Shown here piece after piece: positions 47,640-52,642 of a stretch of 64,000 bases of DNA. Both the position numbers and the translations under genes were made by a program. The notes beneath the pieces were generated by a model. That model saw nothing but the letters and a program-made list of their open reading frames with translations, was not told where the DNA came from and did no database searches. The first letter of the stretch is position 1; each line of letters begins with the position of its first letter. This stretch comes from Candidatus Hydrothermarchaeum profundi (GTDB lineage Archaea; Hydrothermarchaeota; Hydrothermarchaeia; Hydrothermarchaeales; Hydrothermarchaeaceae), in assembly GCA_002011125.2 (NCBI GenBank), contig MTMF02000009.1:904989-968988 (forward strand). The letters are read 5' to 3'.

Positions 47640-48794
47640 GTGAAACCATTCATAATTGGCATTGGAAGAGCAGGTTGTAGAATAGCGAACTTACTCCTAA
47701 CCAAGGGGTACAATGGTATCCTAGCAGATACAGAAAAGTCGGATTTACTCTTTTTTCCTTATAGATACAAAATCTTGTTAGGGGAAAAAATACTAGATGG
47801 AAATGGCACTGGCGGGGATATCGATATTGGAAGAGAAGTACTCGAATTAGAAAAATATAACATCATAGATCGTATCGACTCAATCAAAGATTCTATGGAT
47901 TGCATCTTTGTGATATCTGCGATGGGAGGTGGAACTGGAGGCGCGGTCGATATCCTCATAGATGAACTTAAGAAAAGTTATATGGAGCCTATTTATTATG
48001 CTGGAGTGCTTCCTTCCGTAGAGGACCCCTCTGAAATATTGGCTAATTTTTCAGATAATCTAAAGCGAATTGCGCCAATGAGCCATGGTTTTCTCCCGAT
48101 AGACAATGACCACATCAAGGGAAAAATGAGACTAAGAGGATGGTATAATCATATAAATAGCAAGATTTCAAGGTACCTACTCGACCTCTTCAAGGTTGGG
48201 GATTATAGATCTAGGGATGAGTTAGGTGAAAATGTTTTGGGAACAACAGATGTAATTAATACCTTTAAGGGTATCAGTAGTATTGGTATAGGACTTCATG
48301 AAGTTAAGGATGAGGGATTTGGATTCTTTAGACATACGAGTAGTGAAGATAAGCCTGAAATTGTTATCGCTTTAACAGAGAAGGCTGTAAGTAATACATT
48401 AATTTCGGTTGATATCTCTGAAACGAGAAAGGCTCTAGTCGTAGTTTATGGCCCGAGAAAGTACCTTGACTTTTTAGGAAGTATCCCCGCAAGATTATGG
48501 GTTGAAAAAAATATAGGTGGAGTAGAAGTGAGAGGAGGCGACATACCTTGGTCTGAGAAAAAAGACTTAGAGGTCATGGTACTACTCTCAGCTATCAAAA
48601 AAAATGATAGGCTTAAGTATCTCTACCAGCTGGGGAAGATTCAGAAAAATCGAGACGAATATATAGATAAAATAACCAAACTATACGATAAGCTCAAAAA
48701 CATGGAATCTAAGTTTATAGAGATTGAAGAGGATTTTAAGGAGATATATGAAGACTTAAAGAAAATAGAGGAACCGCGAGAAGAGTCATCTTAA
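47640..48794 (+). CDS. Third tubulin/FtsZ (CetZ-like) paralogue with C-terminal coiled coil
   Basis: G.GRAG..IA, G.GTGGD, MGGGTGG, DN, D+INT, EVRGGD.P; acidic heptad tail. Confidence 0.8.
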   Translation: MKPFIIGIGRAGCRIANLLLTKGYNGILADTEKSDLLFFPYRYKILLGEKILDGNGTGGDIDIGREVLELEKYNIIDRIDSIKDSMDCIFVISAMGGGTGGAVDILIDELKKSYMEPIYYAGVLPSVEDPSEILANFSDNLKRIAPMSHGFLPIDNDHIKGKMRLRGWYNHINSKISRYLLDLFKVGDYRSRDELGENVLGTTDVINTFKGISSIGIGLHEVKDEGFGFFRHTSSEDKPEIVIALTEKAVSNTLISVDISETRKALVVVYGPRKYLDFLGSIPARLWVEKNIGGVEVRGGDIPWSEKKDLEVMVLLSAIKKNDRLKYLYQLGKIQKNRDEYIDKITKLYDKLKNMESKFIEIEEDFKEIYEDLKKIEEPREESS

Positions 48795-49232
48795 TTTCAT
48801 CAACATTTCGGTGATGTTATCAAGAGTCTGTATCAAGTCATCTATGTAGTGGGGAAGCACATCCCGGATTGTAACAATACCTACAAGCCTGCTCCCCTCT
48901 ACAACAGGCAGTCTTCTTATACCTTTTTTTATCATTAGAGCCGCAGCATCACCTAAATCGGAGTTTTTATCGATAGAGATAATAGGCGTGGTCATTATAC
49001 TTGTAATACTGTCGTTTAAATCCCTCTGTCTAGCGATAACTTTTTTTAGAAAATCTTTTTCGGTTACAATGCCTACCGGAGAGTTATCTTCTATGATAAT
49101 GATACACCCAATATCATTTTCATCCATTTTCTTAGCGGCTTCGAGTAAAGAGGCGTGGCTTGAAATAGTAACTACCTCTTTTACCATTATCTTCTCAATC
49201 GTTGAATTTTTGACAAGCAATTCAGTATTCAT
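48786..49232 (-). CDS. CBS-domain protein
   Basis: Two CBS repeats (IM...V.TI, GIVTE.D, IRRLPVV, GIVT.RD). Confidence 0.88.
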   Translation of the reverse strand: MNTELLVKNSTIEKIMVKEVVTISSHASLLEAAKKMDENDIGCIIIIEDNSPVGIVTEKDFLKKVIARQRDLNDSITSIMTTPIISIDKNSDLGDAAALMIKKGIRRLPVVEGSRLVGIVTIRDVLPHYIDDLIQTLDNITEMLMKLR

Positions 49233-49368
49233 ATCATCAGTAAGCTAAGGTATTAACTGCTCCATGATATAAACTTTTTGAGAAGAATCTAACTCAACTA
49301 AATTACTCTAGTTACTATTCAGGTACTTAGTAAACTCATTTTAATATTTTTATATTTTTTCAGAAATC

Positions 49369-49402
49369 TTTATAAGGTTAAAAGGAATTCCCTCAAAGGA
49401 GG
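49369..49402 (+). promoter_or_regulatory. TATA box plus SD of the leuA leader
   Basis: TTTATAAG at 49369 and GGAGG at 49398; same 29-nt offset as in the cimA leader. Confidence 0.7.
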
Positions 49403-49409
49403 AAAAAAT

Positions 49410-49442
49410 ATGAAAGGACGGGATTACGTTCTACATGATTAA
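49410..49442 (+). other. Leader ORF MKGRDYVLHD* upstream of leuA (leuA in +1 frame)
   Basis: GGAGG-7nt-ATG; leuA frame open from 49414; Leu codon CTA at 49431. Confidence 0.65.
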
Positions 49443-50967
49443 CAAGTCTAGGAAGGGTATGAATCTCCCAAAATCTGTTAAGATTTTTGATACTACGTTG
49501 AGGGATGGGGAACAGACGCCCAGTGTGGCATTAACGGTTGGAGAAAAAGTTACGATTGCTAGACAGCTTGATAAGCTTGGAGTAGATATAATAGAAGCAG
49601 GTTTTCCTATCTCTTCAAAGGGAGAAAAAAAAGCTGTTTCGAAAATAGCTGAAGAAGGATTGACTTCAAAGGTATGTGGCTTATCTAGAGTGTTAACCAA
49701 TGATATAGACGCTTGCTTAGACTGCGATGTTGACATGGTTCATACGTTTGTATCTACCTCAGATATTCAACTTGAGCACACACTGAAGAAAAGCAAAGAA
49801 GAAGTTCTGCAGATGGCTGTAAACGCCGTTTCCTATATCAAAGATCATGGAGTAGAATGTCTTTTCTCCGCAATGGATGCGACTAGAACTGATGTAGATT
49901 ATTTGATTAAAATTTATAAAGCTGTGGAAGAGGCTGGGGCGGACATAATAAACATACCTGATACAGTGGGAGTCATGATTCCTCCAGCTATGAGACTTTT
50001 GACTAGTGAGGTATATAACGCAGTAAAAATACCGATTGATGTACATTGCCATAATGATTTTGGCCTTGCTGTGGCTAATAGTCTAGCAGCGGTTGAAGCT
50101 GGGGCTAGTGAGGTGCAGTGTACCATTAATGGTTTAGGTGAAAGGGCAGGAAACGCGGACTTAGAGGAGATTGTAATGAGCCTTACCTCAATTTATGGAG
50201 TAAAGACAAATATTAAGACCCAGTATCTGTTTGAGACTTCCAAGCTTGTAGAAAGACTTACGGGTGTAAAGATGCCTCCTAACTTCCCTATAGTAGGGGA
50301 AAACGCATTTTCTCATGAATCAGGTATCCATACACATGGAGTGATTTCCAAAGCAGAAACGTTTGAGCCGGGGCTTATGACCCCTGAGATGGTAGGCCAT
50401 AAGCGAAGAATAGTTTCAGGAAAACATGCAGGAACGCATGGAGTGTTAGCAATGCTAGAAGAAATGGGGGTCAAAGTGAATGAAGAAATGCTCAGAGAAA
50501 TTACAATGAGAGTGAAGGACTTAGGTGACAAGGGTAAGCGTGTTACTGACGCTGATCTCAAAGCTATAGCTGAAGCGGTTATGGGAGAAGTCGAAAAAGA
50601 AAAGAAAATAGTTGACTTGAAGGAGTTAGCGGTGATGACGGGGAATATGGTACTTCCTACTGCTAGTGTGAAATTGAGATTTAAAGACAAAGAGTTAGTT
50701 GGTGCGGATATTGGAGTTGGACCCGTGGATGCAGCTCTTAATGCAGTAAGAAGAGTTGTAAAAGGTGTTGAGGATATTAAACTTACAGAATATAATCTAG
50801 AGGCTATAACTGGGGGGTCAGATGCTCTTGCGGAAGTCCTAGTGAAATTGGAAGATAGCAAGGGAAATGTTGTAACTGGTAGAGCAGCTAGAGAGGATAT
50901 CGTAATGGCGTCTGTAGAGGCAATGATATCCGGGATAAATAGGATTTTCTTATTAAGAGAAAAATAG
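49435..50967 (+). CDS. leuA: 2-isopropylmalate synthase (archaeal LeuA type); true N-terminus uncertain
   Basis: DTTLRDGEQTP, IEAGFP, AGADIINIPDTVGVMIP, HCHNDFG, GERAGN, HESGIH, C-terminal regulatory domain. Confidence 0.82.
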   Translation: MINKSRKGMNLPKSVKIFDTTLRDGEQTPSVALTVGEKVTIARQLDKLGVDIIEAGFPISSKGEKKAVSKIAEEGLTSKVCGLSRVLTNDIDACLDCDVDMVHTFVSTSDIQLEHTLKKSKEEVLQMAVNAVSYIKDHGVECLFSAMDATRTDVDYLIKIYKAVEEAGADIINIPDTVGVMIPPAMRLLTSEVYNAVKIPIDVHCHNDFGLAVANSLAAVEAGASEVQCTINGLGERAGNADLEEIVMSLTSIYGVKTNIKTQYLFETSKLVERLTGVKMPPNFPIVGENAFSHESGIHTHGVISKAETFEPGLMTPEMVGHKRRIVSGKHAGTHGVLAMLEEMGVKVNEEMLREITMRVKDLGDKGKRVTDADLKAIAEAVMGEVEKEKKIVDLKELAVMTGNMVLPTASVKLRFKDKELVGADIGVGPVDAALNAVRRVVKGVEDIKLTEYNLEAITGGSDALAEVLVKLEDSKGNVVTGRAAREDIVMASVEAMISGINRIFLLREK

Positions 50968-50994
50968 TTTTCAAATGTTAATCTGAGCCATAGG

Positions 50995-51028
50995 TTTATA
51001 TATTCTAGTCGATTTAATCTTCAGGAGG
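50995..51028 (+). promoter_or_regulatory. TATA box plus SD of the cimA leader
   Basis: TTTATATA at 50995 and GGAGG at 51024. Confidence 0.7.
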
Positions 51029-51036
51029 AGAAAAAA

Positions 51037-51072
51037 ATGAAAGAACTAAAAGTGGGGGATCGCTTTATTTGA
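51037..51072 (+). other. Leader [14 protein letters not shown] upstream of cimA (cimA in +1 frame)
   Basis: GGAGG-8nt-ATG; cimA frame open from 51050; Ile codon ATT at 51067. Confidence 0.65.
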
Positions 51073-51082
51073 TCCTAAGGAA

Positions 51083-52642
51083 ATGCCTAAGGAAGTCAAA
51101 ATCTACGATACCACTCTTAGAGATGGGGCGCAATCAGAGAATATATCTTTTTCATTAGAGGACAAGTTGCGCATAGCCAAGAAACTAGATGATCTTGGCA
51201 TACATTATATTGAGGGGGGGTGGCCTGGATCAAATCCAAAAGATATGGAGTTTTTTAGAAAGGTTAAGAAATTAAATCTCAAAGCTAAAATTGTCCCATT
51301 CGGTAGTACGAAAAGGGCAGACAGCAGCGTTGAAAAAGATCGAAACCTGAGAGCCCTTCTAGAGACCAATATGAAGACTGTTTGTATATTCGGTAAGACT
51401 TGGGACCTTCATGTAAGACATGTCCTCGGTACCGGACTTGACAAAAACTTGAAGATGATTGAGGAGTCGATAGAATACCTTAAGTCGAAAGACCTTGAGG
51501 TAATATTTGATGCAGAGCACTTTTTTGATGCCTATATTAGCAATTCTTTATATGCGATTGAAGCTTTGAAGGCTGCTAGAGAAGCGAATTGTATCGTGCT
51601 TTGTGATACTAATGGTGGAAGTATCCCCTTTGAGATCCAGCGGATAATAAGGGAGGTAAAAAAGCACATTAAGACACCGTTGGGAATTCATGCCCATAAT
51701 GATTCTGATATGGCGGTTGCAAATAGTATAATCGCAGTTCGCACGGGCGTAATTCAAGTCCAGGGAACAATTAATGGCTTTGGTGAACGTTGTGGTAATG
51801 CGAATCTATGTTCTATAATTCCAAATTTGAAGTTAAAGTTGGGAATAAACTGCATAACAGATGAGCAGCTTAAAAAATTAACTAGCGTCTCTAGGTTCGT
51901 AAGCGAGATTGCGAATGTGAGTTTGCCCACTAATATGCCGTATGTAGGGGAAAGTGCTTTTGCACATAAGGGAGGCGTACATGTTGACGCTGTACTAAAG
52001 AAGGCGGAGACTTATGAACATGTTAAGCCCGAATTGGTGGGGAACTATAGAAGAATCTTAGTTTCAGAACTTGCTGGAAAAAGCACCATATTAGTCAAGG
52101 CTAGGGAATACGGTTTAGATTTAAAGAAGGATACCCCTGAAACTAGAAAAATATTAGAGAAACTAAAAGAAATGGAGAATCAAGGATATCAGTTCGAAGG
52201 GGCAGAAGCTAGCTTTGAGTTGCTAATGAAAAAGGCGTTAGGGACGTATAAAAGTTTTTTTGAGATGAAAGGTTTTAAAGTGATAGTGGATGCTAGAGAT
52301 GGGGAGCTAATCGCAGAAGCAACGGTTAAAGTAAGAGTAGATGGAAAGGAAGAACACACAGCGGCAGAAGGAAATGGTCCAGTAAATGCTTTGGATAATG
52401 CATTGAGGAAAGCCTTAGAAAAATTCTATCCGGTGTTAAAGGAAGTCCGTTTATCTGATTATAAAGTTAGGGTATTGGACGAAAAGAGGGGAACAGGCGC
52501 CAAGGTTAGGGTACTGATCCAGTCTAGGGATGATAAGTCTTCTTGGGGAACTGTAGGTGTTTCCGAGAACATAATAGAGGCGAGTTGGATTGCTCTCTCT
52601 GATAGCATAGATTATAAGCTAATGAAAGAATTATCTCCGTAA
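51083..52642 (+). CDS. cimA: Citramalate synthase (bacterial TIGR00977-type); true N-terminus uncertain
   Basis: [51 protein letters not shown]. Confidence 0.85.

Follow-up and report, generated by a model that had tools for sequence, protein, structure and literature searches.

Candidate +1 frameshift leaders at archaeal leuA and cimA genes, with a leucine or isoleucine codon as putative sensor

Introduction

How might an archaeon adjust the synthesis of leucine and isoleucine to their supply? To our knowledge, leader-peptide attenuation has not been shown in Archaea, and archaeal tuning of amino-acid biosynthesis to supply is largely open. The question is raised by a 64,000-nt stretch of the genome of Candidatus Hydrothermarchaeum profundi (assembly GCA_002011125.2, contig MTMF02000009.1), hereafter the window, which lies at C9:904989-968988 of this genome (G000; 2.19 Mb, 39% G+C). 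Here the genes leuA (2-isopropylmalate synthase) and cimA (citramalate synthase) each overlap, in the +1 frame, a short leader open reading frame (ORF) at their 5' end. We propose, with a probability of about 0.7, that each leader is a programmed +1 frameshift cassette similar to that of prfB, the gene of bacterial release factor 2, and is gated by the charged tRNA of the pathway end product. The proposal draws on leader anatomy, conservation, a switch of coding from frame 0 to the +1 frame, missing start codons, a natural in-frame form and complementarity to ribosomal RNA (rRNA), all of them read from sequence. From these we infer the slip itself, its efficiency and its control by amino-acid supply. 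We regard the mechanism as plausible and very probably new; the reading as a whole is unproven.

Two leaders of the same build

The leuA and cimA blocks, both on the plus strand, are built identically in the sequence, with a TATA-like box, a GGAGG, an A-rich spacer and a leader ATG. At leuA, the TATA-like promoter box of the leader transcript (TTTATAAG) occupies 49369..49376. Archaeal transcription generally starts ~25-30 nt downstream of the TATA box, and on this basis the leuA leader transcript would be expected to begin near GGAGG. This Shine-Dalgarno (SD) sequence, at 49398..49402, lies 7 nt 5' of the ATG and is predicted to form a duplex of -10.0 kcal/mol with the genome's own 16S rRNA tail. 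The leader ORF, MKGRDYVLHD*, runs in frame 0 from the ATG at 49410 to a TAA ending at 49442 (49410..49442). It contains an internal SD-like element, GGACGGGATT (49416..49425; predicted duplex -9.3 kcal/mol), with the invariant core GGGAT at 49420-49424 and its 3' edge 2-3 nt ahead of the P-site codon of the proposed shift site (49428..49433). There, GTT (49428-49430) would occupy the P site and CTA (Leu, 49431-49433) would be the A-site sensor. The leuA gene follows in the +1 frame (49432..50967), with in-frame ATGs at 49435 and 49459, and this frame is already open inside the leader from 49414. After a slip, the A site would read TAC (49432-49434), and the predicted trans-frame LeuA would begin MKGRDYVYMINKSRKGMNLPK..., with GTTC taken as one step.

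The cimA block repeats this arrangement. Its TATA-like box, TTTATATA, occupies 50995..51002 and its GGAGG lies at 51024..51028 (predicted duplex with the 16S tail, -10.2 kcal/mol). The leader ORF runs in frame 0 from an ATG at 51037 to a TGA ending at 51072 (51037..51072) and includes the SD-like element GTGGGGGATC at 51052..51061 (core GGGAT 51056-51060; -10.6 kcal/mol). At the proposed shift site (51064..51072), the putative P-site codon is TTT (51064-51066), the sensor is ATT (Ile, 51067-51069) and the leader stop TGA (51070-51072) follows directly; a slip would bring TTT (51068-51070) into the A site. The cimA gene, of the TIGR00977 type, lies in the +1 frame at 51068..52642 with an in-frame ATG at 51083, and its frame is open inside the leader from 51050. 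GGACGGGATT and GTGGGGGATC both begin 12 nt 5' of the NTT codon.

A preliminary description of this DNA, made from the letters alone, had proposed these two leaders as an amino-acid-sensing +1 frameshift system. The boxes, GGAGG sequences, leaders, +1 phase and motif positions that it listed are all in the sequence, and the enzymes that it named were confirmed by curated models. LeuA scored above the NCBIfam cut-offs over its full length (NF002085, 763.6 bits against 517; NF002086, 549.1 against 532), and CimA reached 806.8 bits with TIGR00977 against a curated equivalog cut-off of 450. The description had also pointed to a TATA-to-GGAGG offset of exactly 29 nt. This offset is the same at leuA and cimA; it is not conserved in relatives and seems incidental and without meaning.

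An assembly error is excluded as the source of the frames, because both leader regions recur in an independent metagenome from another study (X2) with 0 differences and 0 gaps, and a third metagenome (X3), which covers the leuA leader, has substitutions only and no indel. In run X1, a contig of a co-occurring relative joins at window position 49415, inside the leader, and brings its own leader start (..ACCATGGC..). The motif is therefore common to at least two populations in one sample.

Conservation of the leaders across archaea

We searched all 35 genomes of the order to which the source genome belongs; 27 contain the 5' end of leuA, and 25 of these 27 have the +1 leader. Its form is ATG-x-x-NGG-GAT-TAY-NTT-[Leu codon], with the leader stop 0-3 codons past the Leu codon. 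Genome G007 has no leader at leuA and reads the region from an in-frame start as MVNIIKQSKKGMNLP, keeping the extension. Among three genomes sampled from other orders of the class, one carries the leuA leader. At cimA, 13 of 29 usable 5' ends of relatives have a leader of the form NGG-GAT-NNN-NNN-AT[TC], and cimA again lies in its +1 frame.

The arrangement extends well outside Hydrothermarchaeota. At 54 of 64 further named leuA loci we found ATG..(A/T)GG-GAT-CGN-NTT-YTA with leuA in the +1 frame, namely in Methanoperedens, ANME-2, Methanosarcina, Methanolobus (the cultured M. vulcani among them), Methanomethylovorans, Methanothrix and some Methanocellales. Ordinary in-frame leuA starts take its place in Hadarchaeota, one ANME group and some Methanocellales. 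The leader-bearing genomes outside Hydrothermarchaeota lack a TIGR00977-type CimA and possess a second full-length LeuA-family paralog, which has a leader of its own (for example MNAWDRFI, reading TGG-GAT-CGC-TTT-AT[CT]). This paralog is presumed to be a CimA, on the basis of the two full-length paralogs in each genome and of work on Methanocaldococcus; its matches in the Protein Data Bank (PDB) are LeuA and homocitrate synthases, and its NCBIfam matches are LeuA/LEU1_arch subfamily models only.

In an even sample of 61 genomes of one class, the motif was present with a Leu sensor at 61/61 leuA loci and with an Ile sensor at 57/59 loci of the LeuA-like paralog. Thirteen of the leuA leaders in this sample read GTG-GGG-AAT-CGT-CTT-CTA, that is, GGGAAT for GGGAT, and retain both the Leu sensor and the +1 phase; the enzyme frame lacks a canonical start at these loci (L269, L281, L285, L286, L288, L289, L291, L293, L294, L296, L298, L301 and L303). 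A strict DNA pattern from the leader core to the catalytic DTTLRDG matched 68 of 301 genomes sampled across the phylum of that class, a lower bound since the pattern misses variants, and a reversed control pattern matched 0. All parsed leaders have the enzyme in the +1 phase, and the leader stop falls 0-3 codons past the sensor in 24/24, 51/54 and 13/13 of the unique leaders counted. The preliminary description had named conservation of the leader ORF, the +1 phase and the internal SD among related archaea as a test. All three, with the internal SD-like GGGAT at a fixed distance to the sensor, are conserved at 25/27 leuA 5' ends in the order and far beyond it.

Conservation rather than layout carries the argument. 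We scanned the whole of G000 for an ATG, a GGGAT, a leader stop at most 4 codons from the sensor and a +1 frame that stays open over 300 or more codons. The scan gave 9 matches, compared with 0-7 for eight control 5-mers, so the bare layout is not rare by chance. Because the layout is not statistically unusual on its own, its significance rests on conservation across genomes. Four of the seven matches away from leuA and cimA were inspected, and all four were gene-internal or had their own start; the only credible leaders in G000 are those of leuA and cimA. A search of five further genomes for other targets (pattern ATG-N6-30-GGGATCGNNTT) recovered the +1 arrangement only at leuA and the cimA-type paralog. 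One look-alike in a Methanoperedens genome (L191:1501-1545), a small ORF with an SD in front (MNLRRDRLCRHRIR*), precedes a PstS-like gene by ~100 nt; it shows no +1 fusion and is probably a chance match.

The putative sensor codon follows the pathway end product

Applying a strict parser, we obtained 120 unique leaders, 78 of them at leuA. The sensor is a Leu codon in all 78 leuA leaders (CTA, TTA or CTC) and an Ile codon (ATT or ATC) in 13/13 leaders of TIGR00977-type cimA genes and 29/29 unique leaders of the LeuA-like cimA type, as the preliminary description had anticipated for the cognate codon. Counts in the class sample were TTA 30, CTA 29, CTC 1 and CTG 1 at leuA, and ATT 45 and ATC 12 at the paralog. 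Changes at the sensor are synonymous only (CTA/TTA/CTC; ATT/ATC) and never non-synonymous, while neighbouring codons change amino acid freely. The two leaders of genome G008, MVGWDYLLC* and MARDYFIC*, illustrate the rule: both read GAT-TAT and then NTT, and the next codon is Leu (TTA) in the one and Ile (ATC) in the other. Since the A-site codon always tracks the end product, in two phyla and in two unrelated citramalate synthase families, we read it as a sensor.

A fixed frameshift, needed to make the enzyme and unmodulated by amino-acid supply, would share all the anatomical evidence and would agree with the codon usage of G000, in which the sensor codons are not rare (17.5% of its Leu codons are CTA and 33.5% of its Ile codons are ATT). 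We consider such constitutive recoding improbable. It leaves unexplained why the A-site codon is always Leu at leuA and always Ile at cimA-type genes, and why many leaders carry tandem cognate codons (CTT-TTA for Leu; ATT-ATT for Ile in the Methanosarcinaceae-like paralog). The idea that the sensors act as rare codons in G000 was ruled out, CTA and ATT being common there. ATA, the commonest Ile codon of G000 (48%), is never the sensor.

P site and pairing with 16S rRNA

The P site of the 78 unique leuA leaders holds GTT, CTT or TTT, always before a Y-initial Leu codon; class-sample leuA loci have TTT 41, CTT 19 and ATT 1. At cimA-type genes, TTT, GAA, CAA or ATT precedes an A-initial Ile codon. 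By inferred pairing rules, CUU-Y and UUU-Y would re-pair well in the +1 frame, and GUU-Y, UUU-A, GAA-A, CAA-A and AUU-A would re-pair at only 2/3 positions. The pattern would suit partial re-pairing after a one-base slip.

GAT is invariant in 120/120 of the strictly parsed leaders, and the codon before it is CGG, AGG, TGG or GGG (Arg, Trp or Gly). Because GAT is invariant while the preceding codon varies, the target of selection appears to be the nucleotide string GGGAT and not the encoded peptide. All parsed leaders keep one spacing, GGGAT-N6-sensor. The 16S rRNA of G000 ends in ..GGAUCACCUCCU, and its own tail is ..GGATCACCTCCT. Against UGGAUCACCUCCU, the motif and its flanks gave -7 to -12 kcal/mol, compared with a background mean of -3.0, a background 5th percentile of -7.2 and about -10 for real SDs; these energies fall in the top 0.3-5% of background 12-mers. 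The 16S rRNA gene of G000 is split over two contig ends, C8:134282-135018 and the start of C9, and its 3' end (..GGATCACCTCCT) is on the minus strand of C9, ~390 nt from one contig end.

Coding signal in the +1 frame

At the sensor, the frame under coding constraint changes from 0 to +1. After the sensor, entropy in the enzyme frame is 1.12-1.34 at codon position 3, compared with 0.43-0.79 at positions 1 and 2, and Leu and Arg codons change synonymously in that frame. Over the nine codons 5' of the conventional ATG in the order of the source genome, position-3 entropy is 1.42, against 0.72 and 0.72 at the other positions, and amino-acid identity reaches 0.53 when the enzyme frame is translated, compared with 0.32-0.33 for the other two frames. 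By this substitution pattern, the post-sensor stretch is evolving under coding constraint in the +1 frame. Read in frame 0, the E-site codon, which stands two positions before the sensor, specifies either Arg (all four CGN codons are used) or Tyr (both codons are used). Since these changes are synonymous in frame 0 but radical in the enzyme frame, frame 0 is constrained before the sensor.

Start codons are frequently missing as well. From the last stop to DTTLRDG, the enzyme frame contains no ATG, GTG or TTG at 34/54 and 36/61 leuA loci and at 2/13, 7/29 and 30/57 cimA-type loci.

One genome joins leader and enzyme naturally. In G017, the leuA region is 1 nt shorter, so that both are read in one frame as MSKRDYRHTIDRAKEGMRLPE..., giving the N-terminus MSKRDYRHTIDRAKEGM..; it has GAC for GAT and has lost the NTT-YTA site. 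The same single-frame protein is present in a second public source. The outgroup G038 also has a single-frame protein, MSIEEVKYIDEVKNEMKLPKK... The predicted trans-frame LeuA, MKGRDYVYMINKSRKGMNLPK.., aligns to the G017 protein without gaps; its alignment to that of G038 has one gap, a single residue long, within the part derived from the leader. When further in-frame forms were sought by a protein search with the N-terminus of G017, only its own cluster and unrelated N-termini were returned.

By its position, the leader ATG is probably the first start codon that a ribosome meets on the transcript. At 31 of 54 leuA loci outside Hydrothermarchaeota, a TATA-like box begins 33-38 nt upstream, and at only 4/54 is there an SD-like motif no more than 20 nt from the nearest leader ATG, which implies a very short 5' untranslated region (UTR). 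Leaders of Hydrothermarchaeota and of the Methanothrix type have GGAGG or GGTGAT instead.

Alternative starts and other points that weigh against a frameshift

Several observations count against the frameshift cassette, beginning with the sensor-codon frequencies given above and the imperfect P-site re-pairing of GUU, GAA, CAA and UUU-A. The slip and the N-terminus of the enzyme are predictions from nucleotide sequence, and no RNA run was among the sequencing runs listed as containing this stretch. The cimA leader is missing from the closest relatives (genus g2) and from family f2. Of the 57 class-sample cimA-type loci, 17 have no frame-0 ATG; 10 of these show GTG two codons before GAT, and most of the remainder show CTG by eye. 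In the Methanosarcinaceae-like paralog group (27 loci, P-site ATT), 25 loci have the leader stop as far as 10-13 codons past the sensor.

Downstream start codons also weigh against it. In the window genome, in-frame ATGs lie close behind both leaders, at 49435 (overlapping the leuA leader end as ATGATTAA), 49459 and 51083; a frameshift is therefore not strictly required there. An ATG at +28 from the sensor is kept in 23 of 25 leaders of the order, and Methanosarcina-type loci have one at +13. In the window genome and most of its order, part of the enzyme could be made by reinitiation. These starts would equally suit a regulatory upstream ORF without any frameshift, in which stalling or termination at or past the sensor controls independent initiation or reinitiation at an enzyme-frame start. 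We consider this unlikely, though it is the likeliest of the alternatives that we weighed. It does not account for the leuA loci (34/54 and 36/61) and cimA-type loci (30/57) that have no canonical enzyme-frame start before DTTLRDG, for codons 5' of the conventional ATG that evolve as coding sequence in the enzyme frame, or for the fusion of leader and enzyme in G017. Moreover, stalling at a hungry codon would block rather than favour reinitiation, and control would have the wrong sign. The preliminary description had named reinitiation at the ATGATTAA overlap as an alternative to frameshifting; relatives do not keep this overlap, and the corresponding codon of the enzyme frame is ATG in 2/25 and GTG in 10/25 leaders.

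Direct initiation in the enzyme frame is a separate matter. A second ATG (ATGNATG) lies in the enzyme frame 17 nt before the sensor in 22 of the 29 unique LeuA-like cimA leaders, a further point against a frameshift, and direct initiation of the enzyme is possible there. The double start was seen at loci L158-L180 and is absent from the Methanothrix group, which has AAC for AAT. The leader might then be incidental, with the enzyme starting in its own frame at this second ATG or at a non-canonical start such as the AUY of GGG-AUY; the conserved nucleotides would in that case encode an N-terminal G-I-x-[LF] peptide. GGG-AUY is indeed always in the enzyme frame, and some gene callers yield proteins reading through the motif: two public LeuA-family gene calls (P0004 and P0005) extend upstream through ..KWGIALS.., which is the enzyme-frame reading of the leader motif. 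Such extensions indicate that gene callers misplace these starts. We nevertheless regard an incidental leader, and with it a conserved G-I-x-[LF] peptide, as very improbable. At many loci, a stop closes the enzyme frame directly before GGG (TGA-GGG in Methanoperedens; TGA/TAA in the window). The E-site variants CGT, CGC, CGG and CGA are synonymous in frame 0 and would give V, A, G and D in the enzyme frame. The leader ATG and its SD or promoter distance are conserved, and an incidental leader offers no reason for the Leu/Ile rule.

The LeuA-like paralog of Methanosarcinaceae-like genomes (L214-L242) has the leader form NTG-AGG-GAT-NNN-ATT-ATT, in which N of the first codon is A, G or C. In family f2, a conserved element of about TTATTGTTTTGCTTGTAATTGTTAC stands upstream of cimA in place of the leader (L039, L041, L044, L048, L049, L051, L055, L056 and L060-L062), and the leuA promoters of some of these genomes (L007, L008, L012, L013 and L020) have a similar TTTACATTGTTAAC. 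The two may be a shared transcription-factor site.

Proposed mechanism

Under the frameshift reading, ribosomes would begin at the leader ATG, behind an SD or a very short 5' UTR, and within a few codons would reach a weakly pairing P-site codon, NUU at leuA and UUU, GAA, CAA or AUU at cimA. The A site would then hold the sensor (Leu YUA at leuA, Ile AUY at cimA), and the SD-like (G)AGG-GAUY, 2-3 nt upstream of the P codon, would pair with the 16S rRNA 3' tail. With Leu- or Ile-tRNA plentiful, the sensor would be read in frame, a stop would follow 0-3 codons on in most leaders and a short peptide would be released. With charged tRNA scarce, the A site would stay empty, the peptidyl-tRNA would slip by +1, and LeuA or CimA would be made with a leader-encoded N-terminus.

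We read the module as programmed +1 frameshifting with a sense codon as the slow A-site signal, doing the job of an attenuator without a terminator. It is probable, if less so than the cassette itself, that it represents an ancient, portable archaeal 'frameshift attenuator' that is older than the divergence of Hydrothermarchaeota and Halobacteriota lineages, switched from Leu to Ile through a change of one codon and was moved onto a non-orthologous citramalate synthase. On the same reading, the module would probably span ~20 nt, in which an SD-like GGGAUY is followed by a slippery codon and a single cognate sense codon; with it the ribosome would measure one aminoacyl-tRNA directly and convert the result into enzyme synthesis by a +1 slip.

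Comparison with known systems

The closest parallel is prfB, in which the SD-like element stands 3 nt before its CUU. The leaders share with prfB a short frame-0 ORF, an internal SD-like element ~3 nt upstream of the P-site codon and, under the frameshift reading, a slippery P-site codon and a slow A-site codon whose decoding rate would report the level of product and so provide negative feedback. As in a prfB-type system, the leader ORF ends near the shift site with the product in +1, and the internal SD-like element is complementary to the 16S tail. In prfB, the gene's own product recognises a stop codon in the A site, whereas the signal here would be a sense codon decoded by an aminoacyl-tRNA. 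The hosts are archaeal, the genes encode biosynthetic enzymes, and in the predicted duplex of the SD-like element with the GAUCACCUCC tail one A is bulged.

The bacterial leu, ilv, trp and his attenuators likewise have leader ORFs with codons for the end product, where ribosome speed sets expression. The E. coli leu leader is CUA-rich, which resembles the YUA preference seen here. Our leaders have the cognate codons of an attenuator and lack terminator and antiterminator hairpins; they overlap the enzyme ORF and leave no room for a terminator. They also differ from bacterial attenuators in having 1-2 sensor codons rather than a run, and in an output that would be a change of reading frame, not transcription read-through. 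Attenuation, the other alternative raised in the preliminary description, therefore fits worse. RNAalifold found no conserved RNA structure in three leader sets (consensus energy 0 to -0.65), and an Rfam scan of 48500-52000 gave no match at E<=1.

The 'hungry codon', Ty1/Ty3 and antizyme cases resemble our leaders in that a slowly decoded A-site codon triggers a +1 shift. Antizyme frameshifting works as a metabolite sensor (PMC5009743, PMC8211752). Unlike Ty1/Ty3 and antizyme, which are eukaryotic or viral and respond to rare-tRNA or polyamine signals, the leaders link each biosynthetic enzyme to a codon for the amino acid that it helps to produce. In Archaea, the parts consulted of a 2021 review describe the -1 frameshift of fucA1 in Saccharolobus as the only demonstrated case and list Mg chelatase and virus HSTV-2 as suspected (PMC8211752). 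Compared with these, the shift proposed here has the direction +1, involves another gene family and other signals, is far more widely conserved and has a plausible regulatory logic. Literature searches, at the level of listings and abstracts, returned no description of such leaders, and we found none in the consulted parts of the reviews PMC5009743 and PMC8211752 and the ribosome-profiling (Ribo-seq) papers PMC11456600 and PMC13663744, whose supplements, like those of PMC3711429, may list the leader ORF.

If the frameshift reading is true, these leaders are a purely translational equivalent of attenuation, independent of RNA structure and of protein factors. They would also be the first conserved +1 frameshift of a cellular gene in Archaea, and no other frameshift would be known to control amino-acid biosynthesis. 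The part that SD-anti-SD pairing and an empty A site play in +1 slippage on archaeal ribosomes could be studied on them in a natural setting. Gene calls probably misplace the starts of leuA and cimA in Methanoperedens, ANME-2, Methanolobus, Methanothrix and Hydrothermarchaeota. The module is testable, being found in Methanosarcina-type genomes, and Methanosarcina is genetically tractable. For two of its species, M. mazei (PMC11456600) and M. acetivorans (PMC13663744), Ribo-seq data are available. Being small, the module may be usable as a switch that responds to an amino acid, and it is relevant to the engineering of methanogens that overproduce leucine or valine.

Genomic surroundings

In the window, leuA and cimA are followed by ilvB, ilvN and ilvC. 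A gene for a CBS-domain protein is transcribed divergently from directly upstream of the leuA promoter, and an ORF beside it has a weak match to the FtsZ family (39 bits against a cut-off of 295); the two ORFs lie at window positions 48786-49232 (-) and 47640-48794 (+). G000 also has a third paralog, at C9:446472, with an ordinary start and no leader.

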